Shown piece after piece: positions 1 through 60,740 of a DNA stretch of 64,000 nucleotides (the stretch's first letter is position 1; each line of letters begins with the position of its first letter). Position numbers and translations under genes: made by a program. The DNA comes from Lophium mytilinum (Eukaryota): assembly GCA_010093605.1 (NCBI GenBank), contig MU004181.1, positions 310,001 to 374,000 on the forward strand, given 5' to 3'. The notes under the pieces are model-generated. The model made no database searches. It had not been told where the DNA came from and was given only the letters and a program-made list of their open reading frames with translations.

Positions 1-2130
1 TCGACCTCGTGCACATGGAACCTGTCATTCTATTCCCAAGAAACCCCCGTCAACTAATGCTGGTCTGCTTTTCAAGCATAATCGTGCAACGGCGCTCATA
101 CTCAAATCTGGCACCCGTAGTTGATTCCGCACCCAGGACATCGCCGCTCATACAACCAGTATCACCTCGAACATGCGCGACAGTCCGAGAACCTCCCTTT
201 GCAAGTTCGTCGCCTCATCGCCGTTTCGTTCCTCGTTTCTCGTCCCTCGTCCCCTCAACACCTGGCTACCGCGCTCCACCTCTACACGTTCCCAGAATTG
301 CACCACCACGGTCCTCGTTTGCCCGTCCAAACTTTACGTTCGAAGCCCATAGCATCGCCAATCTCGCATTCAGAAGGGTGCAAAACTACTGAATTAGGGC
401 GTCCGCCCAAATACAACTGCCCCGATGAGGAGGAGCTCGAATGGAGACGGGTCCTCCGCTTCGCTTCGGATATCTCTATGTCTTTCTCCGGCGTTATTGC
501 GGCTCGATACGACCCATCCAATCCTGAGAATATCCATCGGCAGTAGGCTTCAAGATTGAAAGGGCCGGCACTTCGTGGGGACACAATACCAACATTCCAT
601 TTCTTGCGATAGAGCTCGTTCTCAAGCGCCGAGCCGGCATCGTGCTTGGCCACCCGCGAAAAGAGGACATTCTTCGCGCGCACTATAGCCTCATGGCTGT
701 AGGTGGGATGAACACCATGCGCATCCTCGCTCGCTGGAAGCTTCACGACGACCGCGGAGAGCAGGCTGCCGATCGTTTGAGCCGACGTTTCAGCATGACC
801 TCGTGACAAGTTTGTGGAATTCCGTTCACCTGCCGAAGGTGACCGGGATGGCGGCATTGGGCATTGTGAGGGGAGAGGCATTCTTCCGTCTGCGCCTCAA
901 CTTGCGCAGCTTCGACGTCGCCGACAATCGGGTCGCTGACCGTGTGGGGAATCTGTTTCCACTCTTCCTTGAGTTCGTGACGGGTTCTGCTGAAATGGAA
1001 TGGAACACTAGATGAGGTTTGGCTCTGTGTACCACGTCAGATGCTAGGTTGGAAACTCCTTCACGCTGACGGTTTTGAGGATGATGGGGAGGGCGAAACG
1101 GAGGGGAGTGAGGCACAGCATGGTGTGACGGTCACTGAAAACGAGGAAAGAGAAAAGAGACTTCACTCAAGGTTGAGTAGGAGTCATTGAGGGGGTAGTT
1201 TGATGCTGGAAATGTTGTCTTTCTTGCTTCCCTTTCCATCTTTCCTTCGTTTTCTCATGAAAATAGGAAGGTTTCCAGCAGAACTACTCTCCCTTTCATT
1301 CAGGGCCGCAGAATCCCTCGCAAGGAATGCACCCTTAAGATCAGCCTCGTGATGCGCGATGATTGCCAACTAGCTAACACCGTCAACATATTCCTGAGAA
1401 TGCGTAAAGATGGGATGTATACTTCACCGGGGACAGGTTCAGGAATGGAGATGCGTCATTCGCCACACCAATATAGAGGACCTTCGCAAAGACATGGTAT
1501 TTAAGTAAGCAGATGATCTCAGTACTCTCATGTCGATGTTGAAGATTTGGAAATTACCGTAAAGTTCATCACCTTTTACCAGATTTGAAAGCCGCCAATG
1601 ACCTTCCAACGTCGCAAAAGGGCGAACCATTCCGCCTCTGCGATGGGCTCGTATGAAGAAGATGCGAGAATCGTTCCTCTCTAAGAGCAAGGGCTTCCGC
1701 TTCAATGTCGTAGTGTAGCGATCGTCTGCAGTTGGCGACGGGGTTGGCGGCCAGGCTGCGCTGCCGGGGGTGTCCTCCCCGTCTAGCCTACGCCCCAGAC
1801 ATGCCGACCAAGCGCCTATATACAATGGATCAATGGATTCTCATCCTCATCAGAGGTGCCATCGAAGGCTTTGCTGCTGCGCAGCGTAATCCTCACCTGC
1901 CCAGTGCTCCCTCTGCCATACCGCCCGCCCACCGCGGGGGCTCGCCCCAACCCCGTGACCCTCCCCAAAACCCCGATGACGTCCCCAACTCCCCCAAACC
2001 GCACACGGCAAGCACCACACCCGCACCCCGGCTCGGGTGGGGCCTCCCTTCCTCCCCAGTCGCAAATCTCTACCAGGCGTCAGGGCTCCTGCCATATATA
2101 CAGCAACATTCGACGAATCTCCAAATCAAC

Positions 2131-2211
2131 GGTTGAGTGGCGCAGTGGGAGCGCACCCGTCGCTTACTGGGTTGCGACGGGAGGTTGCGGGTTCGATTCC
2201 CGTCTCAGCTC
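2131..2211 (+). tRNA. tRNA-like element (aberrant anticodon arm; probable Pol III promoter/leader, not a decoding tRNA)
   Basis: Acceptor stem GGTTGAG/CTCAGCT. D arm GCGC-AGTGGGA-GCGC with A box TGGCGCAGTGG. T arm GCGGG-TTCGATT-CCCGT with B box GGTTCGATTCC. Anticodon arm is an 8-bp stem CCCGTCGC/GCGACGGG with a 10-nt loop and no U33. TATATA lies about 30-35 nt upstream. Confidence 0.8.
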
Positions 2212-2264
2212 AAGTCTAGGTGCTATGGTCGATGACCCGTCAGCCATAGCACCTAGATTTTTTT
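2212..2264 (+). ncRNA. pre-miRNA-like hairpin immediately 3' of the tRNA-like element, ending in an oligo-T Pol III terminator
   Basis: Perfect 14-bp stem TCTAGGTGCTATGG (2215-2228) / CCATAGCACCTAGA (2244-2257), extendable to about 22 bp with G.U pairs and one mismatch. T7 run at 2258-2264. Confidence 0.7.
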
Positions 2265-2957
2265 CTTTTTGGATTTTTGTTACCAAGCGTGGGGATGGGG
2301 AATCTTTTTTTGTGGTGGAGGGCATTCTTTTTGGTGGGAGGGATGCTTTTTGGTGGGGTGAGGCGGGCGGGGGATGAGGCGGGAAGGTAGGTACGGGGAT
2401 GGGCGGGGGTGGATTGGGGCCGCGGAGGTGCAATGCATCTACTGGCACCACCCCATAAGCGTTTAAAGGTCTAGATAGATGATGCACATGTATTGGGCTA
2501 CCATTTGATTGGTATAGGAGTTCGTCGCTGAGGTGCTCCTCACAGTGGTGTCGTGCGAGCATGGGCGGAGCCCAGGCAGAGAGATATCCGCGTGCCTAAG
2601 AGTCTCATCAAGTGATGTGTGTTAATATGTTAGCTGAAAGCAGCGCTCTTTATATCTACCCTCGCAATAGAGCGTTCTGCAGAGGATCAAGGTTGCTTGT
2701 AGGGAGACACGGTGAGTCTTGCTGGCACCGACGTCAACCACATGATCAGAACACCAGCTGCATCTCACGATACTGATCATAGGTCTCAAGCTTCATTACA
2801 GGCCAAAATAAAGAAGCTCAAGTAATCTAGGATCTCTCGTGGAAGGAATGCATCACCCCAAGTTTGATCTTTCATCCGTCAACCATTTCCGGGCATTACG
2901 CAACATCAGGGTCCCACAAACTTTCCATGACTCGCGCAGATCCTAAGCCCAGAAGAT

Positions 2958-4227
2958 CTAATACAGACAGCGAGAAGTCGGGTGAGCGACATGGGCCACT
3001 ACCCAGAGACGAGCCCGTCTAGGAGTATGCCCTTCCAGCATGGCCCGGTTGTAAACGTCGAAGAGCCCGGGGAAGTCTTCGGCCAGCTTCTTACACCGCC
3101 AGGCAATTTTGAGCGCGTCTAGGTCTTGGGCCGACTGGTTCGTATACACTCCGTCGTAATCCGCTTCGAACCCCAGTCTTCCACTGTTCCTGAGGCCTTG
3201 CAGGTAGAGGCCGATACGCTCAACGAGAGCCCCCACGTACCAAGAGAGGCCTTTGGCAAACCAATCGCCACGTCCGTTCCATTCGTTGTTTGAGTTCCCT
3301 GCAAAGGTGAGCATCTTGAGGGCTGGGGACGCCTCGAGAAGCGCGATAGCCTCCCGAGCGTTCGTCATCGACACGGCATAATCGAGAATGACGACCTTCT
3401 CGATTTTGCGCGCAGGCAGCGTAGTGACCAGGGACGACGAAGCCGCGGGCTTGTAGAGGCGAACGACGTCCGCCCAGTCTCCCTCGGAGTGGGTCACCAG
3501 AGCCCAAAAGCGGTCCTCGACCTCTTTTTCTTCAAAGAATCCCCCCTCATGGTATCCCTTGAAGTGCAGCAGAGTTCTGTAGGTGACGACGGGTGTGGGA
3601 TTCCCAGAGATTGTAAGCACCCATGGTCCCGAGCTTGTCTTGACATATTTTAGGACGCCCGGCTGCTCGTCCTTGAAGATAAAGGTTAGGGTGTTCATGC
3701 GGAGCTCCGCCGGAAGGTCTCTCAAGGGGAAGAGAATGGCTTGTAGTAGGGCAGGGGCGTCGACCTGGTGCTGAATTAGCATGACCACCATCGCGATGCG
3801 GGGAAAATAGGTCTTACTGCGCTGATGATCTGAGAGGCCGCCGCATTGGCCTTGAAGAGGCGGCCATGGCGCTTCACGCTGCGCTTTGGGGTGCTCTGCT
3901 TGCGCGCGCTCTTCGAGACATAGAGGCACTGCGCAGCCTTCGAGAGTCGGCCACGGAAGAGGATGGCTCTCTTCCGGAAGACGCTCGCTTTGAAGTCGAG
4001 TCCTTTGGCATTGCGGGGCGAAGGACGGCGAGTGGCTCCAGCGCGGCAGACAACTTGCGCGGGCATCGTCGTTGACTGTCACGTATTAGACCCAGCGGGC
4101 TCCTAGGCTTTGTTGCTGAAGTACGTACGGGGGAGGCCAGTGGCAGCGGGGCCAAGTCCTGCTCACGGTCTGCGACCATGGCGGCGGGGCTTGGTGAAGT
4201 AGTTTTCGGAGTCAACGACGGGGCCAT
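2958..4227 (-). CDS. F-box-like protein, family A (divergent member), 3 exons
   Basis: ATG 4227. Phase-0 introns 4128-4076 (GTACGT..CTAAT..CAG) and 3817-3771/3765 (GTAAGA..GCTAAT..CAG). Spliced ORF about 387 aa with LRDLPAELRMNTLTFIF motif. Confidence 0.65.
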
Positions 4228-4810
4228 ACTGAGGATGATAGACCTGCGCAGGCGGAGGATGAGGGATTGGTGTGGTGGAGTGGAGGGTAGGGGAAGGAGG
4301 TTGAGGTGGAGAATTTGGCGGCGAGCTGCGGCGGCGGCGCGGGGGTGGTCTCGAGAACGCGTCGGTCACTGGATCAACGACCAAGGCTCGAAGCACTCAG
4401 CATGCCTAGTCACCTAACACAGAGGCCATCATGAAGCACTGTATGAGATAAAGCGAGATATGCTACAGCAATAAGACTTACTTGCTTAACTGATGGAGAT
4501 TGGCTGAAGACGTGACCTGCCATCAAAGTCACGGGGTCTTCCCAACCTACACGATGGTGCGTAGACGTTCGAACTCTAGCTAATCATTCTCGAAAGATGT
4601 GCAGATCGCCTCTTTGATAGCTCAAGAGCAGACAGACTTTAGTCGCCTACGTGTGCTGCAACGCGCATCTATGTTCAAGCAGGCGTACCTATATACCAAG
4701 ACAGTATCGAGCAAGAGCGGGTGTAGTTCGGGGGGATGTTGGTGGGGCTATTCGTAGCACGTGCAGCTAGCCCGGAAACGGTTCGTCAAAACAACGCCCC
4801 ACTCTAAGGG

Positions 4811-4817
4811 TATATAT
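4811..4817 (+). promoter_or_regulatory. TATA box of the U6-like gene
   Basis: TATATAT 30 nt upstream of the U6-like 5' end. B-box-like GGATCGAGCC at 4982-4991 downstream of the terminator, as in fungal U6 genes. Confidence 0.6.
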
Positions 4818-4840
4818 TTACTTTATTTTCGAATCCTCCC

Positions 4841-4943
4841 GCCTTCGGGCATTTGAGTCGTATTGAAACCAGCCGGAGAAGATTAGCATGGCCCCTGCAC
4901 TAAGGATGACACGCCCTATCAAAGAGGTTGCTTCAAATTTTTT
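4841..4943 (+). ncRNA. U6: U6 spliceosomal snRNA variant (ACAGAGA box replaced by CCGGAGA)
   Basis: 5' stem-loop GCCTTCGGGC. Core GAGAAGATTAGCATGGCCCCTGCACTAAGGATGACACGC matches fungal U6. AAAGAG helix II segment and oligo-T end (4938-4946) present. Confidence 0.9.
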
Positions 4944-6623
4944 TTTCTTTTTTGCTTTTGCATGCGTGCGCGAGGGATTGGGGATCGAGCCTTAGAGGCT
5001 GCGGCTTTCTTTTTGTACAAACGGTGCTTTATGTTCTTGTATCTGAGTTCCTGGTCGTTGGCGAGCCGACGAAGGTGCTGCGTTTACCTTCAACACTCAT
5101 CTGATCCACACGATTCTTTTGCTTCTGACCTTTTTACTTCATCGATCTCTTGAGCATGCATTACCCTGGCTGAGTGGTCAGGTAGTTGCAAAACGCTTCT
5201 TTTTGGGTTGAAATTACTGAGGACGTACTTATCCCGACTCGCAACCCAGAACCAGACTAGGCAATAAAAGACATTTACATCACACATCAGCTCTCCTTCT
5301 CTACAGCCAAACTTCAGGAAATAGATCCTGCATCAGCTACATGCTACTGATTCTCAAACACGATGCGCGTCCTCCGTGAAAGCAGTTGTTGTAGCATAGC
5401 GTTTGGCGCTTTCTACAATGTCCGCCGAATCCGCCTCTGGAACGGGAACAACGGATCCGCCTCGTTGATAGAGATGCTAATTGATAATGGGTGGGATCAT
5501 GGTACTCATATACTTCGGCTAGCGCCCCCTTTATCACATTTGGCTCGCAAGAGCGATGCTGGAGTAGCAGAGAATGGTCACTTGCAATGGACGTCAGGGA
5601 AGAATGAGCTGGAAACCGTGGATGAAGGTGAGGTTATATACAAGATAGCTCCCACCGCTACTCCCTAACATTGTCGCATATCCATCGGCGCAGTGCGACG
5701 CTTCTATCGCGATGTGTGACCCCCTTTTTAAGCTCCTCCTAGATAATGTGCCATTCCAGACCATAGATGTTCACAAGCTGTACAAGCTCCTTGACTTAGA
5801 AGTGGTGGGGAGACCCTTCAGGTCGTCGTTGCGGAGGGCATAGTGAAAAGGTAAGGAGCTCATGTTCTCAAATACGAGAGGGACTTCTCGACCCGCTTCA
5901 GGCTCCGTGACGTTCTGGGTCGGCATAGCTTCGTTCCACTCTTCTGCTTCGCCTGAATTTGTAGAAGTGCGTTCAGAGAGCCCGTTGGCGAAAACATTAC
6001 ACGTATCACACGCAACGGCTCGAGCTTGGAAAGGTGATTGCAGCGCATCATGCCAGCGTTCTGCGCCAGATGCGTCAGAGCTGGGCTAGTGAGAGCAGAG
6101 CATGGCGCTGATGCAGAGCTCATACGTCAGCAGTTGGCCTTGTCTAATTGACGAGACGAGGGCATGCTTCTTGCCCCTCCGCTTGTATGGTGATGGCCAC
6201 CGGTGAATGTCGAGTGCATGAATTGCAGCTACGTGGCGTTGGGTTCGATGATATAGCTTGTGTATGGGGAAGAAGAGGTTGATCGGAGAAGGAGTGGTAC
6301 CTACCTGTGTACTTACTATCCGGCCCCTCTACTACCCGTTACTTAGCATGTCGGTATTGCGAAAGGAGGTCGTTGATTAGGAATCGGGCTATGGAAATCT
6401 AATGAACTTCATTCGTAGGCAATTTTCGCGTTAGCACAGAAAGATGTTGATTGTGTAATCTTCATGTGATTGTTGTTTTAGCTACATTCCCTAGAGGAAA
6501 TATGCCATGACTATGGAAAGGGGTGCAGGAGCTAGACCGAGTAATCAGAAAACAGAGAGAGCAGCCTACCTCCTCCCCATCCCCCCTCGCAATGCTCGGC
6601 TTCATGTCCTGAAGCGCAAGAAG

Positions 6624-37679: not shown

Positions 37680-38905
37680 GTTGATGGATTGGTGGACGAG
37701 GTTGTGGAAATGATTGTGGGTGTAGAGGGTTGGTGCGTTTTGGAGGGCGAGGCGTCTATCAACATTACGCCCGGCTTAGGCGACCTGCAGATCTCCGCTC
37801 GCCGTGCGGCTCCTCCACCACACCTACGCTAGACTTCGCCGCATATTGGGTCCCTCCTCAGTACAGACTACTATCTTCTTCATTCCCTTCCTACTGCATC
37901 ATCGTTGCTGGACTTGCCTAAAACCACGGCTCCGCAGCCGCTCGCTCGAACGGCTCGACGGAGCCTCGCAGAACCACGGAACGCCTGGCACCCTACCAGA
38001 AGCCTGAACTGACATCGCAGCATGCCTCTGCTTGCGCTCCACCCTCTCGACCAGCCCCTCTTTGTCCCGCGGAAGAGTCCTTGTTTGAGGCCGCCTGCCG
38101 CACCGTCCTGCGCACTTGGCAGACGGGCAGGGGAGCCCCTGACACCGCCGGGGATGGGTCAACACGGTTCATATATAGGCAGGAAAGAGACGGGACATCA
38201 CTATGACAATGTGGGAAGCTTCCCTTGACCCCCTACAGATAGGCATATATATGATATGACGGGATGAGGCGTGCAGCTGCGCTGGGAGGTGGGTTATGTA
38301 GGCGGGACCGTGAAGCAAACGATCGCCCTAGAAAGGCGGGACAGCAAACATATATATGCTTCAAGCGTTCTGAAGTATTCAAACATTCGAGATATGCTAT
38401 CTAATTCTCTAGTTGGGCCAATTTTCCCCATCTCCTCGCCCTGGCAAGATTCAAGGCCGTGGTTGCTGGGGAACTGCTCACCCCTCTATCCCCCGAGGGA
38501 GCTCGCCGCTGCCATATTCTCTCAATGACTAAACTAATTGCGCAGGATGATACCTTGTTGAGAATCCTCATGCGCGTTGGGGGCCGCCTCGTCGCTGCTA
38601 TCTTGGTTGGGGGCGAAGTCCTCGCCGATATCATCTGCCCCTTGCGAGCTGCCTCCCTTCCTCTCCTCAACACCACGCTCTCACCACCTCCTCAACACAC
38701 CCTCTTCATCAACTTCATCATTGCATCTGTTTTCTGCCCTCTCAAGTCATCCTGTACAATGGCTCCTCCTCGCCCTCCTTTCCCCTCGCTCGCTGCCCAC
38801 GACGATCGGGGACACCTCCACCGCCCTATACATATCCCACCAACCCTCGCCGACCACCACAGCCCCAACCACCCCTTTAAGCCTGAGGTGTGCACACATC
38901 GTACT

Positions 38906-39040
38906 GTTTCCGCGAGGTCCATTGCTTCTTTGAAGACCAGCATTGTTAGCCTCATCGGCTATCTCCACGAGAACCCGGATACCACCCTGCCGAGCTTGTC
39001 ATACACCACCACTGCCCGCCGCATGCAACATCACTATAGG
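38906..39040 (+). pseudogene. non-reducing PKS fragment (KS-AT linker)
   Basis: VSARSIASLK..LIGYLHENPDTTLPSLSYTTTARRMQHHYR. Confidence 0.8.
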
Positions 39041-39246
39041 CCCGACCGTACCACCGCCAGTTCAGAAACCATCAGAGGTTAGACTTCACCATCACTGAAA
39101 GCACTGTCGGCGGCGAGGCAACGATCAGCCCAGCCAGCGGCAGGACGGCTCTCGGCGACCTGCTCTCGCCCTCGCAAGAGGTAGTCTTTCATTCTTCTAG
39201 TAAGTCCTCACTCCTTTCTCACCCGTCCAATAACTGCTGTTTCCCC

Positions 39247-39821
39247 GTGCTAACCAGTGAGTCGTCATGGCAGCCTGCGCTGGTCGGGCCGCTGAGCGAC
39301 CGCCCAGGCTTCGCACATAAAAGGACCTTCTGGCACCCTCCTACCGCAAGACGAGAGCGAGCAAAAGTCGCTGCTCTGCCGCCTTCTTCATCGTTGCCTG
39401 CTGCTCGTTGGAGTCTTCTCGGCCACCATCAAGGCCGTCTCCACCTACACGACATCCAGACCTGCAATATCCTCATCGTGAGCATCGATCCTCCCCCTTC
39501 ACTCCTCCAACAACTGCTGCTTCACTGTGCTGACCAGTGAGTCGTCATGCAGGCTACGCTCATCGAGCCGCTCAGCGACCGCCCAAGCTTCGCACATAAA
39601 AGGACCGAGTGTCGCCCTCCTACCGCAAGATGAGAGTGAGCGGACGACGCTACTCTGCCATCTCCTTGACGGTAGCTTGCTGCTCGTTGGAGCCCTCTCG
39701 GCTACCATCAAGGCTATTTTCCGCCTTGCCGACATCCAGCCCTACAATGGCATCATCGTGAGCATCCACCCTCCTTCTTCACTACTCCAACAACTGTTGC
39801 TTCACTGTGCTGACAAGTGAG
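39247..39821. repeat. tandem duplication, 280-bp period x2 plus start of a third
   Basis: GTGCTRACMAGTGAG at 39247, 39527 and 39807 with similar bodies. Confidence 0.85.
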
Positions 39822-39867
39822 GTGTAGTATCAGCTCCATTGCTCACCGAGCTGCTAGACGACTGCCC

Positions 39868-39957
39868 GGCCGTACACTCGTCGGCATCCTCATCAGCTGC
39901 GACCACAACACCAACATCGTTCTACAAGACACCATCGAGCGCATTATTGTGCCAGCC
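39868..39957 (+). pseudogene. LSM8: second LSM8 fragment
   Basis: GRTLVGILISCDHNTNIVLQDTIERIIVPA; shares the IVPA continuation with the 34.1 kb copy. Confidence 0.75.
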
Positions 39958-40347
39958 TACCGCGGGACAAAAGAGAAATGGCAAGCAGGACAGGTGAGAC
40001 CGTGCTGGACGAGACAATATGTGGAGTTGTTGGTGGAGAAGTCTTTCAGTATTCTTACGTTTGGTACTGTTTCAATATCATCCTGTCCCCGTTCTAGCCC
40101 TCGGGCCCCTGCCGAGCGGAAGTGAGTGATGCACTTGCGAACGACAATGCGGCGTCTTTCCAGCCCGCGTCTCAAGGTACGCTTCAATCCCCTCTTTACA
40201 CCTCTAGACATCAACTGACTTCGAACAGACCGACCTCCTCCTTCGACCGTCCTCCGATCGATTCTCAGCATCGCGACGACGATGTCCACACTCACCCTCC
40301 CCCTTTGACCATAGCACCTAGATACATACCTTTCGCTGCCGATCTTG

Positions 40348-40401
40348 GCAGCGAAGGGATTCAAAGCGACCAAGCTTAACGTACCTTTTGCATTCCACTC
40401 T
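40348..40401 (+). pseudogene. non-reducing PKS fragment (AT domain)
   Basis: AAKGFKATKLNVPFAFHS contains the AFHS motif. Confidence 0.75.
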
Positions 40402-40719
40402 TCGTGTGGAAGTTTCATTCCAGTACGAAGTTTTCTATGCATTTCTGCTGGCGCCTGGAGGCAAAGGGATTCGGAAACGGTCAATTTGTTGCTTGTTGCC
40501 TCACGGCTAGCAAACGGGCGAACTAATGGGAGGGAGTCTGGGCCTGTGGTAGGTCGATCCGCATCGACCATAGCGCCTAGATGGAAATCTTTCGCTCGGG
40601 GCCTGGGCCCGAGCCCAACAACGTCCGCTGTTGTCAGCGATGGTAAGAAGACTCCAAAGTTCGTTGGGCGCTCAGAAAGCTAACTTCGAGAGAGAGCAGG
40701 GGATCAAGCTGCCGGAAGA

Positions 40720-40960
40720 CTGGCATTCCAGTGTCCAACCAGGCCTACGTTAGCGCCGTGAGCGTGATGGTCCTGACGATCAGCGGACCTCCCTCGACGA
40801 CCAGGCGCCTATTCAAGGAATCCGAGCAGTTCAGCAAAAACCACCGCGTTCCGATTCCCGTCTACGCTCCTTATCACGCGCAGCATCTATACAACGACGC
40901 TGAAGTCGCACGAATCATCGACCCGAAGACACGAGAATTCCTCAGGGAGTACCGCCCATT
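40720..40960 (+). pseudogene. non-reducing PKS fragment (SAT domain, C-terminal part)
   Basis: GIPVSNQAYVSAVSVMVLTISGPPST..RVPIPVYAPYHAQHLY. Confidence 0.8.
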
Positions 40961-41807
40961 GTGGTTGGAGGAGGAGGGGCTGTCGTATGATGGGCGCAGT
41001 TCGCGACTACTTGGTAGTACCATAATGAAATCCTTTTTCCCTTCTAGCCCTCGGGCACCTGCCGAGTGGAAGTGAGTGATCTGCTCGCGACTGACAACAC
41101 CTCGACGAACTGAAGCTGAGTCCTCTCGCCCGTCCGTTCAACCTTTTATTCTCCTCCGGGGTTCTTGTTTCGACGTTAACTTTTTCAAGCGGTCAAGGAA
41201 AGTAAGTAAGCTTCAATTGGGTCACCCACGGAATTTAACTCTTCTACAGGTGAAGCGCCGGCAGTTGAACTGGCTGGACTTCTCCTGCTTATCGCTGCAG
41301 TGCGGTCTTCTCCTCCACCAAATTTGCAGCCAGAATTAGCTCCATTCGCAGCAGTCAAAGACGGTAAGAAAACTCACACACTTCACTTTGCAAAGGCTAA
41401 CCCAGAAAGAAGTGAAGCGCTTCTCCTTCGTTTGCTTGAAGCTTGCAGACGAGCTTGGGGGTCTTTGTCCAAGTGACAGACCTCTACCGACCGCGTCCAA
41501 ATGCATCACGCCTGGACCGGATAGACGACTCGACCAACCCGAGCCTTCACCCGAACTGCTTGTTGCAGCCTCAGAATGAAGCCTCAGATCGAAGAACCTT
41601 GTAACACCCAGGTCGATTTCACTCCGAAAACGGTCTCCAAACAGCTGCCTGTCGCTTTTCCTGCTCCTAGCCAACACGCTAGTCAACAAATCGACGGTGT
41701 TGAGGTGATCCATCACCTGTACATGCACCTCTAGTACTTCGCTTGGATGGACGACCATCCGCCTGATCATCGATTCGCTGAGAGGATCTGTTGATCGCCA
41801 AGGCATG

Positions 41808-43335: not shown

Positions 43336-45344
43336 TATGTGCGAACCTGGTATCTCAACATCAGGGCCTAGTTGTTTTGCCGCTTTTGGGATAGCCTCGC
43401 CGCTGCAAACCCTTTCGACAACCTTTCGCGTTTGCTTCTTCACCTTCGTCCAACCTGCGACCACCACTTCACTTCTAGCTCCTCACAAGCTCGCAGCCGA
43501 GTGAAAGACTACCGTTTCTGGCTCCTGAACAACTTTCGCGCCTGGAAAAGCCACCCTCATCGATCAGACGCCTGAGAAGAGATTCTTCGCTCCAAGCCCG
43601 AGCCCAGCGATGTCCGATGCTGTCAGACCAAGGCCCGCGGTTGCCAGCACTATCTGGCATTTGTAAAGATTGACAAGCTACCCAGAGAACATAAGGTTGA
43701 ACTTCAATCGACGGGTCCACCCCATCGACCATAGCGCCTAGATGCAGATCTTTTTCTCCGGGGCCCGAGCCCAGCAATGTCCAATGTCCGCTGTTGCCCG
43801 GACTACTTGGCATTTGTAAAGATTGACAAGCTAGCCAGCGAAGAAAGGTTGAGCTCCATGTTCCGGGAGAAGCAAGGTTGAGCTTCATGTTCCGTTGCGG
43901 TCGGGACTCCATGGCATGTCGACAAGCTATCGGCGAACGAAAGGATGGCCTGCGGTCGACTTGCCCACCCCATCGACCATAGCACCTAGATACAAATTCT
44001 CGAGTCTCGGCTCGAGTTAGAACGTCTGCTGTTGTCAGGACTACCTGGCATTTGTCAAGATTGATAAGCTACCCGGGGAACGCAAGGTTGAGCTTCAAGG
44101 TCCGCTGCGGTGTGGACTACCTGCATTTGTCAAGATTGATGAGCTGGCCGGCAAACGAAAGGTTGAATTGCAATCCAGTGTCGCTTCTGTCAAGACTACA
44201 CGGCATTTGTCAAGATGGATGCTCTATTCGGCGAACGAAAGGTCGAATTGCAATCCGCCAGCCCGCCCTCTAGCATCGACCCATCCGCTGAACCAACCTC
44301 TTCATGCAGTCACCAGAAGCTCCAATGCTTCCAGCTTCGAGTTCAATGCAGAACATGAACACTACCGCGAGATCGAATCCAATCGGGGCTTCGATCCCGG
44401 CTCCTCTGAAGCTTGAGCCTCGCAATCCGCATATGAACTACGATGCTTCAATTCCAGACCCTAGTGCATACTTCGACCAACGCCGCTGAAGAAGCACCCA
44501 CGATCCGCGATCGCCATTTCTGGCTCCTTTACAGCCTCGCGCCCCACGGCACTAGGCTGGCATCCCGGGAGTGTTTGCACCTCGAGATTGCCGTCGCGGA
44601 CAGTCACCCATCGTCTGGTATGTCAAACATGTGTTTTCGCTTGGTTCCGTTTACTGACGAATGTCATGCAGGGGTATCAATGAGGGCAGGCAGTGTGCAG
44701 GCGACGTGGACTTTTTCCTTAGCGGAGTAGGCAGCATGCTTCCGGTTACTGGAGGCATCGTGAAGAGTGCTCCTTATGTTGCTTTTTCTGGCGAGAATTA
44801 GGTAGTTACTCATGGTGGAAATGGTGACGGTAGTACCGGAGAGCGCGGTTTTTAATGGTGGTTTTCAATGGCGGTTTTCCGAACAACCAGTATTTAGTTC
44901 AGCATAAGTAACTGCAGAGCGTGATATTCAGGCAGGTCTGGTGGCGCCAGGCGTCGGAGGGCTTTGGATCGCGTGCAGAAGTTTCGTAGATATGAACAAA
45001 ACCCAGTCTCACCAGGCGCTCACCGTGAGCAAGGCCAATCGCATGCGGAGGTGCTGAAAATTGATGGATGTTGGCCGCAAACGCAACCCTCCTCGGCCGA
45101 CTCTCCCCCGCCGACTCTCCCCCAAACAACAACCCTCCGCAACAGGTACTACTGCAAACAACTCTAGATCCGCTAGCAGTCTAGCTAACCGTGCGCGCGC
45201 TTTAGACAAACCGTAACCCAGCGTCAAGCAGCTCGCGCACCATCACTCCTCAAAGCACCCGTTGCCGCAACCGCCTCCCGCCGCCGCAACCGCCTCCCGC
45301 CTCCCGCCTCTCGCCTCCCACGCACCCAACACCCACCTCCTGCA

Positions 45345-45480: not shown

Positions 45481-48400
45481 GTAAGTGCCACCCCGCGCCT
45501 TGAAACCGCGCGCAATCCTACATCATGAGTCTGGGCACACGGAATCAGCACTGCTTGGCTGGAGTCCTGCAGACTGAGCGCCGCTGTAAAGGGGAGCCTA
45601 GCTGCCGCGCAGCCGGTCGGTCAAGAGGGGGTCTGATCTTCGCTGCTTGGGCCTCGACATCGGCCGCGAATTCGAGGGACTCCAAGAAGTGGCGGACGAG
45701 TGTGCACAGACTATGAGCTGTCGTTATGATATCAGTGCTAACGACGCGCAGGCCGCTAGACCTCGCTGCGCTCCTTCGGCGTTGGACCTCTCCAAGCGAC
45801 GCACCCGCGCCAGGAGGACCTGTGCCAGTCTTCGCCGAACATGATGTTGGAGCTGCGCTCAGCGAGACGTCCCGCACCAGGAGAAACCTTCCTGGCATCA
45901 CCGAAGACGGTGTTGGATCTGCCCGGAGTGACACCGCGCATGACAGACGTTGATCCGGACGACCTTCCTTGGCGGGAGAAGAACGAATCGCCAACCTCGT
46001 GCCTGCAGAAGTCTATCGAAGTTCCCAGTGCATTTCTCGACCGTGAGGATCCTACGTACGCCAAAGCACGGCAAGACAATGGCGCACCCGCGTCAGAAGG
46101 ACCTGTGTCAGTCATTGCGAAAGACGCCGTTGGAGATGCGCTCAGCGACACGTCCGGCACCAGGACCAACGTCGGCACGGCCGGTCGAGGTGCATTCGTG
46201 TGAATTGTCGCGCGATCATCGGGAAGACAATAACATGCCATCTGTGAAGATGGTTGATATTGGCCGGAAAAGAGTGCGGGGAAAGTCGTGCTTAAGGGGA
46301 AGTGTTGTGCTGGGCTGCGCTCAGCGACATGTCCCGGGTCGAGCTGCTTTCGCCGGACAGACTAGGTGACTACGAGGAAGACAACAACATGCCATTCGTG
46401 AAAATGGTTGATGTTGGCCGGAAAGGAGGGCGGGGAAAGTCGTGCTTGAGGGGGAGATTCATGCTCATCGGGGAAAGTCGTGCTTAAGGGTACGATCCAC
46501 CAAAACCTTCGTCTTCGACTTTGCTAACGTACCATGCCTGCAGACTGGGTTTGTTCGGATGTGGAACATGGCGCAAGAGCTGCGGAGACTTTAGGATTCC
46601 CTTATTCGAAAAGCTTCCCTGTCGCTCACGTTTTGTGCGTGTTGATTTGTTTGCTTGACTTTGCTTGGTTGCTGTGCTTCATGATGTCTCCGTCTCGTTC
46701 TTTTCACATCTTCCTTGCTTACGACCATTGCCCGAAAAGCGTCTCTCCTTGGTACAGTACCGAGACGTAATTCTGGGCACCCGACATAGCACTCCGCCGG
46801 TTCCAATCTTGATCACGCGATGCCACCGTCATTAGTGGCCCGGCCAGCAAGTCGTCGGCAGGTCAAAGGGTTGCCTGTGCAACACTGCATCGAGCTTTAC
46901 GTCGTCTTCGGAGTTACATCGTCTTCGGAGAATCAAAAGCCATAAGCGTACCTGAAGCGGCCCCAGAAACTAAAACCCCCCATGACAACCAAGGTCGCGG
47001 AGCACAACGACAAGAAGGGTATGAAGAATGCCGAGAGGTAAGCGTCTCCCCACAGGAAGAGCAATGTAAGACGAGGAGATGCTGATACCAAAATACTCCA
47101 CCGGGGCCAGGAACGATCGCCCTCGAGAACCTACCACCTCCGTTACCAACCTCCCACCTTGCAACCTGACCGAGCCCCATCCTCATCCCCACAAGGCCAT
47201 GCCTCTGCCTGCCCAGCCGCGACACATCTAACCACCCCGCATCATACCCGCGAAGAAAGCGCGAAATCGGTGTACTTCGAATGCGAGATGGAGAATAACC
47301 ATGTGGAAGATTAGCGACGAGAGAACAACGGGCAACCTACATGCGAGAGTGGGGCCCATTCAAAGAGTGAGCAGAGTCATCGAGGCGGGGACGGAGACGT
47401 GGTTGGACAAATGGATTGCGAACATGAAGGATATACATACCTTGGTAACCTCTCCCCTCCTGGTACAGACTTCGACAAAAGCCGATAGTTAACAGATTGC
47501 AGGTGGATATGAAAAAAGGACTTGAGCGTTGAAAGCAGAGCGACGCAAAAATACCTGCTGCAAAAGAAAGGCGAAGTTCGGATAAAACCAAGTTGGAACG
47601 CTCAGATTGCACGAAATGACTTGACAGCTTGACGTAGTTGATCATCTGTGAGTATGACTGGGAGACAAGGAGACGCGCAGAAGGACTGACTGGTGGAAGG
47701 AATATGACGATACGAAAGCTGAGTGGAAATCATGGTTACCTATACGGCTGAACAAAGTACTGATTGAGTTTGCAGGAGCTCGCATGAAAGAGGGCCTCAA
47801 CAGCAGGTATTCGAAGAACGAGACTAGGATGAAGCCAATGAGGAGATCAGTACGAGACACCTACCTTGACAAGATGAAGCGAGGTCGAGCCGGGGATGAA
47901 ACCCATGAGATGATCAGTAAAAGATGCCTACATTCACAAGATGAGACGAGAACGAGACTGGGATGAACCCGATGAGAAGATCATTACGAGACACCCACCT
48001 TTACAAGATGAAGCGAGATCGAGGCTGGGATAACCCCGATGAGGAGTTGAGTCCGACAGTTGAGTAAGGGACACCCACCTTTCTCAGATCAGAATGGTAT
48101 GCGACAGGCTGACCCCCAAGCAGAAGTTTTTACCTCAAGCATCGCAGCGTTGACACATGGACTGACGTGCAATTCCAAAAGATCATGAGAGGCGCGAAAC
48201 CAGACGAAGAAACGACCTACTAGTACGCATCCCACCCATCAGCCAGAGGCGAGAAAAGAACGCGATCAAACGAAACATCGCCAGAGGATTGGATACTCAT
48301 TGAGCCAGAATGAAGCTGATAGAAACCTACGATCGGGAGAAATGCGACGACCTGAAAGATAAGTAAGACCGGAGAAAGGTACCTGTACATGAGCTGTTAT

Positions 48401-48699
48401 GCTTTGCAGATCCAAAGCGGCGCCGCTAGCATCGTAGAAAAGGTTTCCGCGCATCAAACCTATCCATTCCCACCTGTAGATCAAGAGAGCCATTGACGAC
48501 CACGCCAGAGTTTCGTGAATGACGAGAACGAAAGTTGAGCAAGGACGGAGAGACCTACATTCATACTTGCTGACCTGGCTTGCAGGCCAAACCATCGCCA
48601 ACAAAGTCGCGGAACGAGGGCCTTCGAGCATCAAACTGCTCATTTCCGGAACCCCACTCACCCACTCACCCACTATCGAGGTAGTGGACACATAGACGA

Positions 48700-48862
48700 T
48701 GACGCAAGAGGATCGAGAGCGACGAAAACGACGAGAACGAGGAGGACGGTGAGGACGAAGAAGAAGACGAAAATAACGAAGAGAACGAAAACGACGAAGA
48801 GGACTAAAATGACGAGAACGACGAGGGTGACGAGAACGACGAGGGTGACGAGAACGACGAAA
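48700..48862. repeat. low-complexity GACGA/GAACGA tract with an 18-bp unit repeated about 3 times
   Basis: TGACGAGAACGACGAGGG repeated at 48810-48860. Confidence 0.85.
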
Positions 48863-49499
48863 AAGAAAGCTGAGTAAAAGCAGAGAGACCTCCATGGGTA
48901 TTTACTGATAAGGCTTGCAGGCCCAAAGAAAAAAGGACAAAGACAATGCGAGAGGAAAGAAAATCTAGACCCTGGCCTTCTCACCTTCTTCGGGCCCAAG
49001 GATGAAAAGAAAGACGCTGAGCTCACAAGAGTATCGCAAAAGGAAATTCGAAAGCTGAGTGAGAAGTGCAGGCATTTACCGGATCCATCCACTGACTGAG
49101 ATTTCAGATTCATGAGAACATCGCAGACCGAAGAACACGAGCAGAGATCACTAGCGACTTACATGCGCGACTTGCCTACCGATCGATCGTAGACGGAAAG
49201 CATCACGCGAAAGGAGGTTTCGGATTTGAAGATTGAAAGCTGAGTGGGAAGCTCGAAATCTTACCGAGATCCATCGCTGACTTCACAGTGTAGACTGATG
49301 TGGGAGCTGCTTTAATTTGATTTGAAAGAGCTTATGAGATTGAAGCGGAATTGGATATGGGAACACCTACATTGAGGTAAACTCAAATTGCCAGAAGCTG
49401 AAAAAGAAACGATGATGCTTGGATTTTGCCAAAATCATGCTGATGTCTTCGAAGTACGTTGAGCAGCAAAGACCTACCGCCGTGAGAAAAAATGGGCTG

Positions 49500-49740
49500 A
49501 CTGAAAGCAGGACGCAAAGAGCAGGACCCCTATCGGATACCTTGGTAGCGACGAAGAAAGCAACTGCCGCATGGAATTGACAAGTTGAGAGCAGGACGCA
49601 AAGAGCAGGACCCATACCAGATATCTCGAAAGCGACGTGGAAAGCGACTGCAAGCTGAAACCGACTGATTGGGAGCAGGACGTAAAGAGCAGCACACCTA
49701 CGGGATATCTTGAAATCGACGAAGAAAGCGACTGAAAGTT
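49500..49740. repeat. about 84-bp degenerate tandem repeat x3
   Basis: GCAGGACGYAAAGAGCAG near 49507, 49591 and 49675. Confidence 0.8.
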
Positions 49741-50329
49741 TTGGAACCAAACGACAAAGAAGTCTTTGAGATGGTTTACCGTGAGCAAGAAATGGATATG
49801 GTAGAGACTAACTGGAAAGCAGAAGCGCCTACCTTGGGGAGCAGAAAGCAGATATCGAGAGGACTCGGAGATTCAAGAAGCAAGACACAGAAAGTGAGTG
49901 TAGAGTCGAGATCACCCACCTCCGAGGATCATGAAAAGGAAGCTGGTATATCCAACACAGAAGACCCACCGGGAGACACATAAGACCTACCTGAAGAAGG
50001 TAACGCGGGCCCTGAGTCAAAGGACGAGGGAAAGAAAGAGAGGGAAGTCGAACGATTTACGAATGAAGCTGAGTAGCACGAACCGCACTTACCGTTGCAA
50101 GGAAACTGACGAGCAAGAATGATGACAGCGACAGACCGCGAACTGATACGGAGATCAAATCTTCAGAGAAATATTAAGCAACCGCGGGCAAGGAATGAAA
50201 GGATGGCACTTACCGCACTCACCATTGCAACGATATCGACGAGAAGAGACGACGTTGAAGAAAGACTGCGAGCTGAGTACGGAAATCAAGCCTTTCAAAG
50301 AGGAAAAAGCCACCTCGGGTAAAGATCTG

Positions 50330-51490
50330 AAGGGAACTTGTACCAAAGCTTGACAAGAAAATGAAGCAAAGACGACTGACGCTGGCATAGCCCTGCACAT
50401 AGGAACTTCGCGCCGATCATCCAAATTCACCTACCTTCGAAGAAATCTGATGAGACGACGACGCATAAAACGAGACTTCGAACGGGATGAGAGTTCTGGA
50501 AGGGTTCAAGAACCTGAAAGCGAGAGAAATGGGTTGCTGACCCTGGGAAACATGAGAGCTGACTCGACATTGCTAGGGACGTAAGAAATCCGCGAAAACT
50601 ACTCACATTTACCTACCTCTCAAGCGGAGTGGTACGAGGTGACGACCTGCAGAAAAAGCCTTTGAACGGGAACAGAGTTTTGGAAGGAATCAGAAAGTTG
50701 ACAGAGAGGGACAAGGTAGGTTGAACCCAAGAGACATATATGAAAGCTGACTTGGCATTGCTATGAACATAGGAAATCACTGCGACTAACTGCCTCTCAC
50801 GGGGATTCGGACGAAACGATGACGCAAAGAACAAGATTTCGAACAAGGCGAAAAGGGTTCATGGACCTGACAGCAAGCGATAAGATGGGTTGAACCCAAG
50901 AGACATATGAGAGCTGACTCGGCATTGCCCAGGACATGGAAAATTCGCGCCGATCACTCAGAATCACCTACCTCTTACGAGAATCCGGACGAGACGATGA
51001 CGCGTGGAACGAAGCTTCGAGCGAGATGAGAGATCTGGAAGGGTGCATGAGCCTGAAAGCGAGAGATGAGTTCCGCCAAACCTGAGCAAATGATGAGGGC
51101 TGATCCGGCACTGTCATGGACATAAGAAAGTCACGCCAACGACCTAGATTCACCTACCTATCAACGATTCAGACGAGAAGATGACGCGTAGAACAGAACT
51201 TCGAAAGACATGGAGAGGCTCGGAGGGTTAATGAACCTGGAAGCGAGAGATGAGTGCCGCCAAACCTGTATAAATGATCAGAGCTCACCCGGCATAGCCA
51301 TGGACGTAGAAAATTCGCACCGACCACCTAGATTCACCTACCTATCAGAAATTTCGGATGAGAAGATGACGGTTTGGAGGAGACTCGGACAGGAGGGATC
51401 TGAAAGGGTTTACAAACCTGGAAGCAAGAGGAAAGCAAGGTTCGCTGAACCTGGGAAGCATATGAGAGCTGACTTGGCATCGCCGTAAGC
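50330..51490. repeat. about 180-190-bp degenerate tandem repeat, about 6 units
   Basis: Recurring TYACCTACC at ~50428, 50610, 50965, 51150 and 51335, plus recurring GAGCTGAC..GGCAT and CCTGRAAGCRAGAG blocks. Confidence 0.75.
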
Positions 51491-54400
51491 ATAGGAGATT
51501 CGAGGCTGGACCACTTACTGTCGCGAGAAACCCGAGGATCGGCGAAGACTTCCAAGATTTGAAAGTTGTATCGAGAACACTTACCTAGGAGCAAAATCGA
51601 GGAGCAGAAAGTAGATGAGCACCAAGCTTGGCTAGATATGAGGAAAGCTGGCTTACCAAAGATAGGATGGGACCTGGCCGGCCGGAGGAGATGAAAGCTG
51701 ACTCGGCATGGCCGCAGACAAAGGAGATCGAAACTTGCTCCGCCTACCTTACGGCGGAGATGCGGGAGCTGAAGAGAGATTGAGAGGTCGGTGGATTTCC
51801 AACTGGTTGCGGAGCAAGACTGCGAGTTGAAAAAGAGAGTGAGCATGCCCGCGTGAGGGTCAGAGATCAAACCGTAAGAGAGAAAAAGAAACTGCTGATA
51901 TGGCATCGCCGGACATAGTGATTGTAGGAACCCGCGAACAGAAACCTACCTTCACCTGAGGAATGGATAAACGACGCAGTGAGATCAAACCTTGGTGAAA
52001 GAAATGGCCTCCGACGCGGCATTGCTGGACACAGGAAACACGAAACGTACTGTTAGTCAATGATATTTGGAGGACACGAGCAGAAGTGGAAAGCACAGAC
52101 GAGAGCCTACCGTTATCGAGAGAAGCATGGGTGGGAAATAAGGAGCATGAATCACAGAGATGAGTGAAATGAGATTCGCCGGGCAACCTGGCCACCGCTG
52201 ACTTGATAGGCATTGCCTTGGATAAAGTGAACCACCCACCTTTGACGGAAGACTAACGAAAGGGCGGTGCCCACGAGACGAAGGGAATCGCAGAGATGAG
52301 TGGAAAGAGATTCGCCGAGTAACATGAAGATCGCTGACTTGATATGTATCGCATCGGACATGGGAGATTCCCTACCTTTCATCGGACATCGACGAAGGAA
52401 CGAGATACTGAAGGGGCTGTGCCCATGAGAAGGAAGAAATCACCCACCGCATTCCAAGAAGCGAGCTGACGTAGACGCAAGCAAGACGAGAACGAGAAGC
52501 ACCACAAGGAGTCCTCACCTTTGTTGAGAAGCTGAATATAGAAGAAGAAAAGAAAACAGAAGATGGAAGTGCTGAGGCTAACGGGATAAGAGAATACTCA
52601 CCGAATGCGACCAGGCCGCACGAACTCGATCCCGATAAAAAGGCGATAAACGATTGCCGTGGACATACGGAATGACTTACCGTCTAGGAAAATCGACGGA
52701 GAAGCGCATGAAGATGTGAAGGAAGCGCTGACGGAGGTGTGCGGACAAGAACGAAAAATGGAAGCAGCGCAGATATGCAAGGGCGAAGCCCAACGAGCAA
52801 GCGAGAACACTCACCGGCTATGAGAAATTGGAGTGACGGTGAAATGGTTGTCAAGGATGGATATCCAACGAGGAATGCCTACCTGCGGGTGGTGTAATGA
52901 GTCGATGCCGAGACGATCGCCTCGATGGAAAAGATAAGACACAGAACTCATACCTGCAGAACGATGAGCTGACTCAATAGGGACGAAAGAAATCGAAGAG
53001 GCAACCGAGACAAACGAGATTGCCTACCAGGTGCGCGTAACATGAGAGATGAGGCTTCGCTGACTGCACGGAACGCATAGATCGCTCACCAACTTCAAAC
53101 TCCTACCTGCTGAGCCGGAAATCAATTGATCAGCGATGACAGTAGCGACAAAGAGAAAAGATGCGAAGGAGATCCCCTACCAGGTGTTCGAAATGGACTG
53201 ATGCGGAGAAGGAAATCCGAGAAACGAGCCTAGATTCCAAGACCTCACCTACTCTTGGAAGAGACTGAGCGACGCCGACGGCAATAACGAAGGCCAAGGA
53301 ATGAGAAAGCTCACCCACCAGGTATGCAGAGATTAAGAAGACGAAGCTTGAGGGAGTGCTCAAATACAGACGTAGAGATTGCACTTGGACTTGGAGAACC
53401 TACCTTTCGACTAATGGGGAGCGACTGAAAAACGACGATGGCAAATGCTAGTGAGTCAAAGGAGACGCCTTACCTGGACATTCGAGATGACTGACTGGGA
53501 AATGAAGGTATCCAACTAACGTGGGGAAAGGACTTCAAACCAAAGATCGATCCTAACTTGGGAGCAAGCACGTGACTTGAGGAATGTGGACTGACAAAGA
53601 CAAGGAAGTAGGAGCGGAGCAAGGGGAGCTTACTGGTGAGGGCTGTCAGACGAGCAGAAAAGGAAGGGAAGTCCAACCCAGATCAAAGACTGCGATCACG
53701 AGATTGACACGTGACATAGTCCAATGCCCAGAAGACCGAGAAATTAGGAGATTCTCACCGTTTCAATAGGGAAGAAGACGCTAAGAACTCGACCGCAATG
53801 ACAAGACAGGGAGGCCTTGCGAGGGCCGACTCAGGAGGACGATAAAGCGCCTACCTTTCCACGCTGAGAAAAATGATAGTAGAACCAACTTGTGTGACCA
53901 CGACGAAGGGGATCATACCTGATTTTGGACGTCTGGAATTGAAGGCAAGCACACGAACGCAATGACAGAGAAGCCGAAAGCGTTGACATTTCCAATGGCT
54001 TGGTGCCAGAGAGACAGACATGACGATTACCTTGCTTAGGAAAGATGCGACGTTCGCGGGACAAATGAGATTCTTACCTTTTTTCCAGAACGATGCGACG
54101 GTGGTATGAGATGAACGAAGCATGGCGCTTATCAGAAAGATCTAGGAAAAGGTCACCTCGTTCGAGACACCTGCGACTGTGGACAGGCGACTCGGGCAAC
54201 ACTCTGCAGACAAAGGAGACACTTGCCGTGTGGAAGAAAAGACTGACTGCAAGAATGATGCGACGACGGTACGAGAAGGACACTAGTGAAGGAAGCCCAT
54301 GATACATGTCAGATGCTTACCATGACCAGGGAAAATGCGAGGGTGATGCATTCGTCTCGAATTAACGACATGAGCCGACGGCAGAGAAAGATGTTAGACG

Positions 54401-59499: not shown

Positions 59500-60740
59500 T
59501 CACTCCTGCGACATCCCCCCCGCACTGCTTTCGATACGCCACGTCTTGCCTCCAACCTCTACCGATCCAGCTGATTGATACGGCACCCTGAACCGGAACT
59601 CCGTGAGAGGCGTCGTGAGTTTGCGAACGGGTGCGAGGATATACGGCTCATTTACCGCAAACTTCTCTGCGTCCCAGAAGCCACTCAACGTCAGTTCAAC
59701 GAAAAGAGATCGCAGCCCCTGCATCCCCGCCATCACTCTCCAAACACGGTGCCAATCGCGTTCCGCTTCGGGGTCGTCGTCCTTTGCAACCACTTCCGCC
59801 TCCATGAAGGCGTTGAAGAGCGAGTACTCGAAGTTGAGCGAGCGAATCTGATGGAGCCGTTGCGTCACAAGGAGGAGGGGCAGCTGCATGAGGGGATCGG
59901 CCTGGCGGAGACAGAAGGTGTTGGCGGTGTAGAGAAGGTCGATTGATTCGGTGTATCTGGCATGTAGTGTTAGCAATGGGCATATCAAGTTCCTTGCGGC
60001 GAAATCTATGTTCCCTATCAACTAGCCAAACTTCTGCCAAGGGGGCTGCCCCTAGGCGCAGCCTCCGACTTCCATAGGAGGGCTCAAATAGTGCTGCACC
60101 TATGGACCACGTCCTCGGGTCGATGTCTTACTACTCACATTTGGCGACAGCTCAGCAAGAAGTGCAGCCGATTCAATCCTACGTTCGCCTTCGTCCCGTG
60201 CGCATCTCCGCAAAGCGACCTTTCTTCGGCCACGCACTCACAGCTGTAGAACCATCGAAAATAGGACCCCACCAAACGTATCCCCGAGTCTCCAACAACG
60301 TGCCGAAATATCTCTTGGCGAAGCTCAAGGGGCAGCTTATACAGCAACGACGCCGATGGCTGCAGTTTCGGCTCTCCAATGACAACTGGCGCTGGCCTAT
60401 AGGGTGCAGGGTTTCGAACTCGCTCTTGTCGGTCTTGCGCTTCCTCCTCGATCTTCTGCGCCGTCGGTGTATTCCTTTTCCTGCCGCTTTTGGTGGGCGA
60501 ACCATACCCAAAAAAGCTCAGAAGATAGGCCGTCCACCCTTCTTCTTGCTTTTCTGGTTCAGTGGGTGGTAAAACCGTGCTATACTTCTCCCAATAGGTA
60601 ATGTAGGGGGAATTTGTGACATCTTTCCAGACTGATTTGTCGGGCGGCGAGTACTGAATACGGCCGATGTAGGCGCGCCTTTCTTTTTCATTTAGATCCG
60701 GGTTGTTTCGCAGCCTTGTGACTGCTGGTGTGATCTCCAT
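59500..60740 (-). CDS. DUF7730-like (F-box-like) fungal protein
   Basis: ATG 60740; QPSASLLYKLPLELRQEIF..FLLSCRQ, phase-2 intron 60138-59957, YTESIDLLYTANTF..IRSLNF..W..MAGMQGLRSL. Confidence 0.8.

Follow-up and report, generated by a model that had tools for sequence, protein, structure and literature searches.

A tRNA-like gene followed directly by a hairpin in Lophium mytilinum, a candidate RNA polymerase III locus for a microRNA-like RNA with an arm antisense to nearby repeats

The 64,000-nucleotide stretch of Lophium mytilinum contig MU004181.1 (positions 310,001 to 374,000 of the forward strand, assembly GCA_010093605.1; the whole stretch is hereafter called the window) was found to carry, at 2095–2264 on the + strand, a compact cassette in which a tRNA-like gene is followed directly by a hairpin of 22 pairs that finishes in a run of seven T. 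The cassette is real, rare in the window and single-copy, and it is tied by its sequence to a nearby repeat. What appears to be new, from the sequence comparisons described below, is that the 5' arm of the hairpin is antisense to four copies of a repeat block in the same window. By analogy with the milR-4 locus of Neurospora crassa and the TMERs (tRNA-miRNA-encoded RNAs) of murine gammaherpesvirus 68 (MHV68), the cassette may give rise to an RNA polymerase III (Pol III) precursor that RNase Z would cut into a hairpin like a microRNA precursor (pre-miRNA), a reading that is put forward here as tentative.

Structure and copy number of the cassette

The cassette consists of the following elements.

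2095–2100, + strand: TATATA upstream element, at -36 to -31 relative to the first base of the tRNA-like gene, read from the sequence
2131–2211, + strand: tRNA-like gene, called by ARAGORN and scoring 48.4 bits with Rfam RF00005 (gathering score 29)
2156–2181, + strand: over-long, non-decoding anticodon arm with 8 pairs, a 10-nucleotide (nt) loop and no U33
2212–2234, + strand: hairpin 5' arm, the predicted guide strand, of which 2215–2234 is antisense to the repeat block
2235–2237, + strand: hairpin loop of 3 nt, ACC
2238–2260, + strand: hairpin 3' arm, in the sense of the repeat block, from which it deviates at 2239, 2242 and 2243
2258–2264, + strand: T7 run resembling a Pol III terminator, its first three T paired in the hairpin stem

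The cloverleaf at 2131–2211 scored well over the Rfam gathering score, with model positions 1–71 aligned (cmscan), and was the sole tRNA match in the window by ARAGORN and Rfam. Its acceptor stem has seven pairs, including two G-U pairs, there are four in the D stem (GCGC/GCGC), and the T arm has a 5-pair stem with a 7-nt loop; the variable loop is 5 nt long and the discriminator base is C2211. The sequences TGGCGCAGTGG at 2138–2148 and GGTTCGATTCC at 2190–2200, both on the + strand, fit the consensus of the Pol III A box and B box, respectively. The spacing between TATATA and the gene is about that between the TATA element and the U6 small nuclear RNA (snRNA) gene 2.6 kb away. No run of four or more T occurs in 2131–2257; the T7 run then stands directly at the end of the stem, and a back-up T5 lies beyond it at 2266–2270. 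The original prediction had been made from the letters of the window, and the TATATA element, the tRNA fold with its A and B boxes and the intact acceptor, D and T arms that it described were all found in place. A bacterial-type promoter and terminator scan gave no sites and is irrelevant for eukaryote DNA.

The hairpin spans 2212–2260. A2212, the base after the discriminator, opens a stem that reaches U2260 and is made up of 18 pairs, one C x A mismatch and four further pairs closed by the 3-nt loop; 19 of the 22 pairs are Watson-Crick and three are G-U, and a perfect Watson-Crick core, TCTAGGTGCTATGG / CCATAGCACCTAGA, lies at 2215–2228 and 2244–2257. A hairpin of about 22 pairs finishing in T7 had been predicted and is what the sequence contains; it does follow the tRNA-like gene, but the gap of 4 nt assigned to it must be corrected to 0–3 nt, the lower value applying when the G-U and A-U pairs at its end are included. 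The fold energy is -32.3 kcal/mol, with a z-score of -10.57 and none of 200 shuffles equal to it, which is the stability looked for in the hairpin precursor of a microRNA-like RNA; separate fold predictions agreed. A census of perfect stems of at least 12 pairs with loops of 3–30 nt over the whole 64 kb returned three rows, all of which are this hairpin. The structure at 2212–2260 is far beyond chance. It also has a strand bias, the + strand folding at -32.3 kcal/mol versus -25.6 kcal/mol (14+3 pairs) for the - strand; this gap of 6.7 kcal/mol arises because the G-U pairs turn into A x C on the - strand, and of the four positions at which the palindrome is imperfect, three form G-U pairs in the + strand RNA.

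Two observations concern the surroundings of the cassette. The segment 2266–2360 (+ strand) contains five further T5–T7 runs interleaved with three copies of a G-rich unit (roughly TTTTTGGTGGGAGGGAT), and the flanks are skewed in composition, the left one (1800–2094) being 43% C and the right one (2265–2560) 39% G. A larger foldback of the C-rich and G-rich flanks was considered and rejected, as no inverted repeat was detected (score 22 versus a shuffle mean of 21.7, standard deviation 3.3).

The anticodon arm holds 15 nt where the tRNA model has 6 (cmscan); it is thus 9 nt over-long, and it has no U33, in agreement with the prediction that it does not decode. Folded alone, it reaches -15.0 kcal/mol with 8 pairs and a 10-nt loop. 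The score well over the Rfam gathering score would also suit a normal tRNA gene that decodes and is interrupted by a short intron, in which case the hairpin would merely lie in the trailer before the terminator, and fungal tRNA introns of 9 nt are plausible. Removal of 9 nt at position 37/38, however, leaves C-G-C-U-U-A-G, with G33 instead of the near-universal U33, and neither the sequence as it stands nor the one so spliced has an anticodon loop of 7 nt that contains U33 and a usable anticodon. ARAGORN, run again with its intron options, returned only a forced Ser(ACT) model, which needs a mispaired D arm and is without the long variable arm of serine tRNAs.

A relative of the cassette bears on the same question. 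It was found in a leaf-litter metagenome (run X3) as one contig of 162 nt, whose 130-nt insert lies on 2092–2221 with 11 differences. Differences were located only away from the ends of the aligned pieces; six of the 11, at 2162, 2163, 2165, 2166, 2173 and 2174, could be placed, and all of them fall in the anticodon-arm insert, the remaining five being near the ends, without positions. As changed, the arm of the relative still folds (6+3 pairs, -10.0 kcal/mol). With a 9-nt intron assumed at 37/38 it would read another triplet as its 'anticodon', so decoding is not the conserved trait. The normal intron-containing tRNA that had been named beforehand as a competing explanation is therefore not what is present, given G33 after splicing and the different 'anticodon' that the relative would carry, and a decoding gene is considered very unlikely.

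The copy number was estimated from contigs of four runs aligned to 1800–5000 at 80% likeness, of which X1 and X2 are probably from the source genome. A single contig alone covers 2014–2441 in each of these two, with a flat depth of 162 and 147.5, respectively, whereas the bins over the U6 gene gather many contigs (summed depth ~2500–2980 in X1 and 1650–2500 in X2). Neither a second copy of the cassette nor a parent tRNA at 80% or above was found in the X1 and X2 genome contigs. A single contig at single-copy depth excludes a high-copy short interspersed element (SINE), the other competing explanation that had been named, and makes a young pseudogene less likely. For the tRNA-like head, the Pol III boxes and the T-rich end, a SINE copy derived from a tRNA and carrying a constant tail would be an explanation; at 80% likeness or above it is already contradicted by the absence from X1 and X2 of any further contig on 2014–2441, where U6 has many, and the blocks at 40–44 kb described below have no tRNA part and only ~20 nt in common with the cassette. 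It is regarded as barely credible. No contig of run X4, which is possibly an RNA run, lies on 2095–2300, an absence that has no bearing on expression.

Further relatives were not recovered from the databases. A metagenome scan for the block ATCGACCATAGCRCCTAGA gave no matches, and one with a 22-nt word from the variable loop and T arm gave at least 116 loci; among the matches listed (at least 116), none has the 5' half of the cassette (best ungapped identity 0.40) or its tail, and those listed are unrelated tRNAs and SINE-like elements. Neither metagenome scan gave an orthologue of the cassette among the matches listed. The block had no matches in viral contigs, and its three matches in 596 billion bases of prokaryote genomes are meaningless, because about nine are expected by chance.

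The hairpin arm and the repeats at 40–44 kb

When the window was searched with the 20-nt 5' arm (2215–2234) at up to three mismatches, six matches were obtained versus 0.02 expected. Two belong to the hairpin, namely the 5' arm and, on the - strand, the 3' arm; the other four are distant complements on the + strand.

40303–40322, + strand: block complementary to the 5' arm, 2 mismatches
40562–40581, + strand: block complementary to the 5' arm, 1 mismatch, with a weak imperfect second arm just upstream
43723–43742, + strand: block complementary to the 5' arm, 1 mismatch
43971–43990, + strand: block complementary to the 5' arm, without mismatch over 20 nt

The blocks sit in degenerate tandem repeats with units of ~150–250 nt that are 73–85% alike, and the block CCCCATCGACCATAGC(A/G)CCTAGAT is the most conserved stretch of these units. 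They share the sense of the hairpin 3' arm, the 5' arm being the exact complement over 20 nt. Three of the four repeat copies give no fold (z 0.06 to 0.33), and the copy at 40562 folds weakly (-24.6 kcal/mol, z -1.88). Since the blocks carry the 3'-arm sequence and the 40562 copy has a weak second arm, hairpin and blocks share ancestry; most simply, the comparison suggests, the hairpin would have been born by inverted copying of a repeat unit. Of its four deviations from a perfect inverted copy, three are A-to-G changes in which pairing is retained as G-U in the + strand RNA.

A coding role of the blocks was considered and rejected, as two long minus-strand frames read the block in different frames and resemble no protein; a Pfam search of the block frames gave no match at E up to 1. 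The block region is enclosed by inverted repeats in two nested pairs, 34157–34241/39882–39966 (86%) and 35071–35124/44501–44554 (80% complementary).

The same homology would follow from a passive event, in which a palindromic repeat module of the 40–44 kb block family was inserted or duplicated just downstream of an old tRNA-like gene (or pseudogene) and happens to be followed by T-rich sequence. Transcription would then be possible, yet the hairpin would have no role as a small RNA and its complementarity to the blocks would reflect common descent only. The hairpin 3' arm and the repeat blocks are indeed homologous in the same orientation, the sequence after the block may align too (TCTTT at equal offset), the 40562 copy bears its weak second arm, and the repeats are degenerate non-coding DNA. 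Such an event has to be reconciled with a very exact fit, the stem running from the base after the discriminator to the first T of T7, and with the finding that only the copy in the cassette is a well-formed hairpin. A search for tRNA relics beside the repeat copies gave none at E up to 1. Moreover, the tRNA-like body retains every stem and both boxes though it has no partner at 80% or above in the genome contigs, and in the leaf-litter relative it is unchanged outside the anticodon insert wherever differences could be located; a body without such a partner that is intact and unchanged in this way points to constraint rather than decay. Passive capture is on this evidence judged rather unlikely, a serious competitor nonetheless.

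The anatomy of the cassette would also fit an RNA in which the tRNA-like part and the stem-loop stay joined as one stable Pol III product of ~135 nt, having a role based on shape (protein binding, localisation) and not that of a guide. There is a precedent in TMER4 of MHV68, which is reported to act through its viral tRNA-like element (vtRNA) and one stem-loop of non-specific sequence, as an intermediate of ~150 nt and independently of its microRNAs (miRNAs) (PMC4838037). For such an RNA the 20-nt match of the arm complement to four repeat copies is explained by common descent only. The intact acceptor/T-arm helix and the trailer, which is not CCA, would in addition resemble an ordinary substrate of RNase Z, as expected from established tRNA processing. 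A joined structural RNA therefore seems improbable.

Known systems and the proposed pathway

The closest comparison is with milR-4 of N. crassa, which is reported to be a Pol III co-transcript with tRNA-Ala whose 5' end needs RNase Z (PMC3547838), and for which the authors themselves draw the parallel to MHV68. The two loci are alike in lying in fungal nuclear DNA, in having a tRNA directly upstream of the small-RNA stem in a Pol III-type unit, in the T-run terminator right after the small-RNA sequence, and in that RNase Z, cutting where the tRNA ends, would set the 5' end of the small RNA, a cut that is here predicted. They differ in that milR-4 is described there as lying between two genuine tRNA-Ala genes, with the star strand downstream of the second tRNA, whereas the present locus has a single non-decoding tRNA-like leader and a compact, self-contained hairpin of 22 pairs. 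In literature searches on fungal tRNA-linked hairpin small RNAs, judged by titles and the openings of abstracts, milR-4 was the only fungal case found of a tRNA-linked, Pol III and RNase Z-dependent small RNA, which is no proof that others are absent from print.

The TMERs of MHV68 consist of a tRNA-like element and two pre-miRNA hairpins that are processed by tRNase Z and Dicer (PMC4838037), the non-aminoacylated tRNA-like element serving as Pol III promoter and tRNase Z signal. The order of tRNA-like element, hairpin directly after it and Pol III stop is matched here, with one hairpin versus two. The TMERs so described are viral, 200–250 nt long, with two hairpins, and are clustered in eight units. 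The present cassette, unlike these, is cellular, fungal and single-copy, about 135 nt long, with one hairpin, and is the one unit in 64 kb.

The trailers of tRNAs are typically short and unstructured. The candidate RNA, predicted to extend from 2212 to ~2262, corresponds by position to tRF-1 and other 3'-trailer RNAs (e.g. PMC10191329), which are likewise bounded by the RNase Z site and the Pol III U-run. It differs from tRF-1 in being a hairpin trailer of ~50 nt behind a non-working tRNA. A similar layout exists in engineered short-hairpin RNA (shRNA) cassettes, which are driven by tRNA or U6 promoters and combine a Pol III promoter, a stem of ~20 pairs, a tiny loop and a T-run that leads to a 3' UU overhang. 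The cassette described here, unlike those, is natural and genomic; it has a U6 gene and spliced genes for neighbours, and repeats of its own genome match its arm.

In the tentatively favoured pathway, the TATA box and the internal A and B boxes would drive a Pol III transcript of ~140 nt, made up of the non-decoding tRNA-like leader followed directly by the 22-pair hairpin and ending in T7. The intact acceptor/T-arm helix would be recognised by RNase P and RNase Z, so that the precursor would be processed like a tRNA, and an RNase Z cut after C2211 would yield a hairpin of ~51 nt whose 5' end, A2212, carries a phosphate and whose 3' end has a short overhang of U, 2 nt long if Pol III stops after about five U. 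The freed hairpin of ~51 nt would be shaped like a pre-miRNA or an shRNA. From it Dicer, or slicing by Argonaute as for short hairpins, may produce an RNA of ~20–23 nt, and the 5' arm may then guide Argonaute to + strand transcripts of the conserved 20–21-nt block at 40.3–44.0 kb. What was observed is the anatomy, its rarity in the window, the presence of a single copy, the better fold of the + strand and the complementarity to the repeats; that the cassette is transcribed, that RNase Z cuts its transcript, that the product is diced or loaded and that it silences anything are proposals.

The original prediction of a microRNA-like gene is partly borne out by the anatomy, the repeat complementarity, the strand bias of the fold and the milR-4 precedent. 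One of its arguments, that fungal Argonaute prefers a 5' U and that the arm starts with U, is weak: RNase Z cutting past C2211 would set the 5' end at A2212, three bases ahead of U2215, so that the argument fails unless extra trimming is invoked. This point weighs against a guide function, and several others stand beside it. A guide starting at A2212 would have its first two bases unpaired with the block sites, with G2214 in a G-U pair only, so that its seed match would be imperfect. For Dicer, 22 pairs and a 3-nt loop make a rather short substrate. The contig of the leaf-litter relative stops at 2221 and includes the tRNA-like body and the first bases of the trailer only, not the hairpin. The changes in the arms match the pattern expected for a guide 5' arm and a passenger 3' arm, three of the four substitutions keeping the pairing and three of the four lying in the 3' arm, but with n=4 they are too few to be significant. 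Finally, the block sites are degenerate non-coding repeats with no recognisable gene, and the ancestry shared with the repeat family means that the copy in the cassette could be a passive insertion.

A more specific scenario may be drawn from the same material, and is regarded as doubtful. The cassette would be a TMER-like 'natural shRNA' gene on a fungal chromosome, its tRNA look-alike kept only as a Pol III promoter and RNase Z handle; its product would guide Argonaute to repeats 38–42 kb off, beside fragments of polyketide synthase (PKS) genes, and the gene would have been born by inverted copying of its own target.

Genomic context and significance

The window looks like fungal nuclear DNA. 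The nearest structural RNA gene is that for U6.

4841–4942, + strand: U6 snRNA gene, 62.9 bits in Rfam, on the strand of the cassette and 2.6 kb further downstream

About 30 nt ahead of it lies a TATA-type run (GTATATATTT), and its terminator reads T9-C-T6. Diverged U6 copies are numerous in the source-genome contigs, with a summed depth of ~1650–2980 versus 148–162 for single-copy sequence, and run X4 also gave U6 pieces. A neighbouring gene on the - strand (~2958–4365) has a 53-nt intron at 4076–4128 (GT..AG), which is spliced out in an X4 contig; no Pfam family was found in its protein. Between the cassette and this gene, a short element at 2533–2570 has extra partial contigs in X1, X2 and X4, with depth up to ~205–220, and is probably a small dispersed repeat.

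Pfam families were absent from 33 of the 39 frames scanned. At 40.7–40.9 kb there is a remnant of the SAT domain from a polyketide synthase of the non-reducing type, limited to the domain's final 57 positions (E 1.6e-15), and near 38.9–39.0 kb a C-terminal piece of a CurL-like PKS (E 6.6e-07). These PKS fragments (38405–41075, + strand) are isolated pieces within non-coding DNA that has been duplicated locally, a setting suggestive of a secondary-metabolite locus that was broken up or rearranged. DUF7730 occurs in four frames on both strands at 59500–63928 (E 6e-30 to 3e-08), a small cluster of paralogues; DUF7730 and SAT-type PKS genes would point to filamentous ascomycetes. The U6 snRNA gene, the spliced neighbour and the fungal-type PKS and DUF7730 fragments make the context of the cassette a cellular one, and not the viral cluster of the TMERs. 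Elsewhere in the window, the + strand of 48000–56000 is strongly A- and G-rich (AT skew 0.33, GC skew 0.13–0.15), with no long open frame and no Pfam match among the frames scanned, and tandem arrays occur at 50.4–51.7 kb (units of ~184 nt) and 49.5–49.75 kb (units of 84 nt).

The known Pol III, tRNA-linked routes to microRNA-like RNAs comprise one herpesvirus family and one Neurospora locus. If the present hairpin is inert, the locus would be a tidy case of a repeat module behind a Pol III gene mimicking a small-RNA gene. If the microRNA-like reading is true, the compact design in which a tRNA part that has given up decoding supplies only promoter and cutting signal would have arisen independently in fungi, and the cassette would be a cellular counterpart of the herpesvirus design. 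The arm, its decayed relatives and its candidate targets, all within one 64-kb stretch, would then be a clear example of a gene born from its target, and from a single locus one could read where a Pol III microRNA-like gene came from and what it targets. The locus would, in addition, supply a natural model for expressing hairpins from tRNA-driven units in filamentous fungi.

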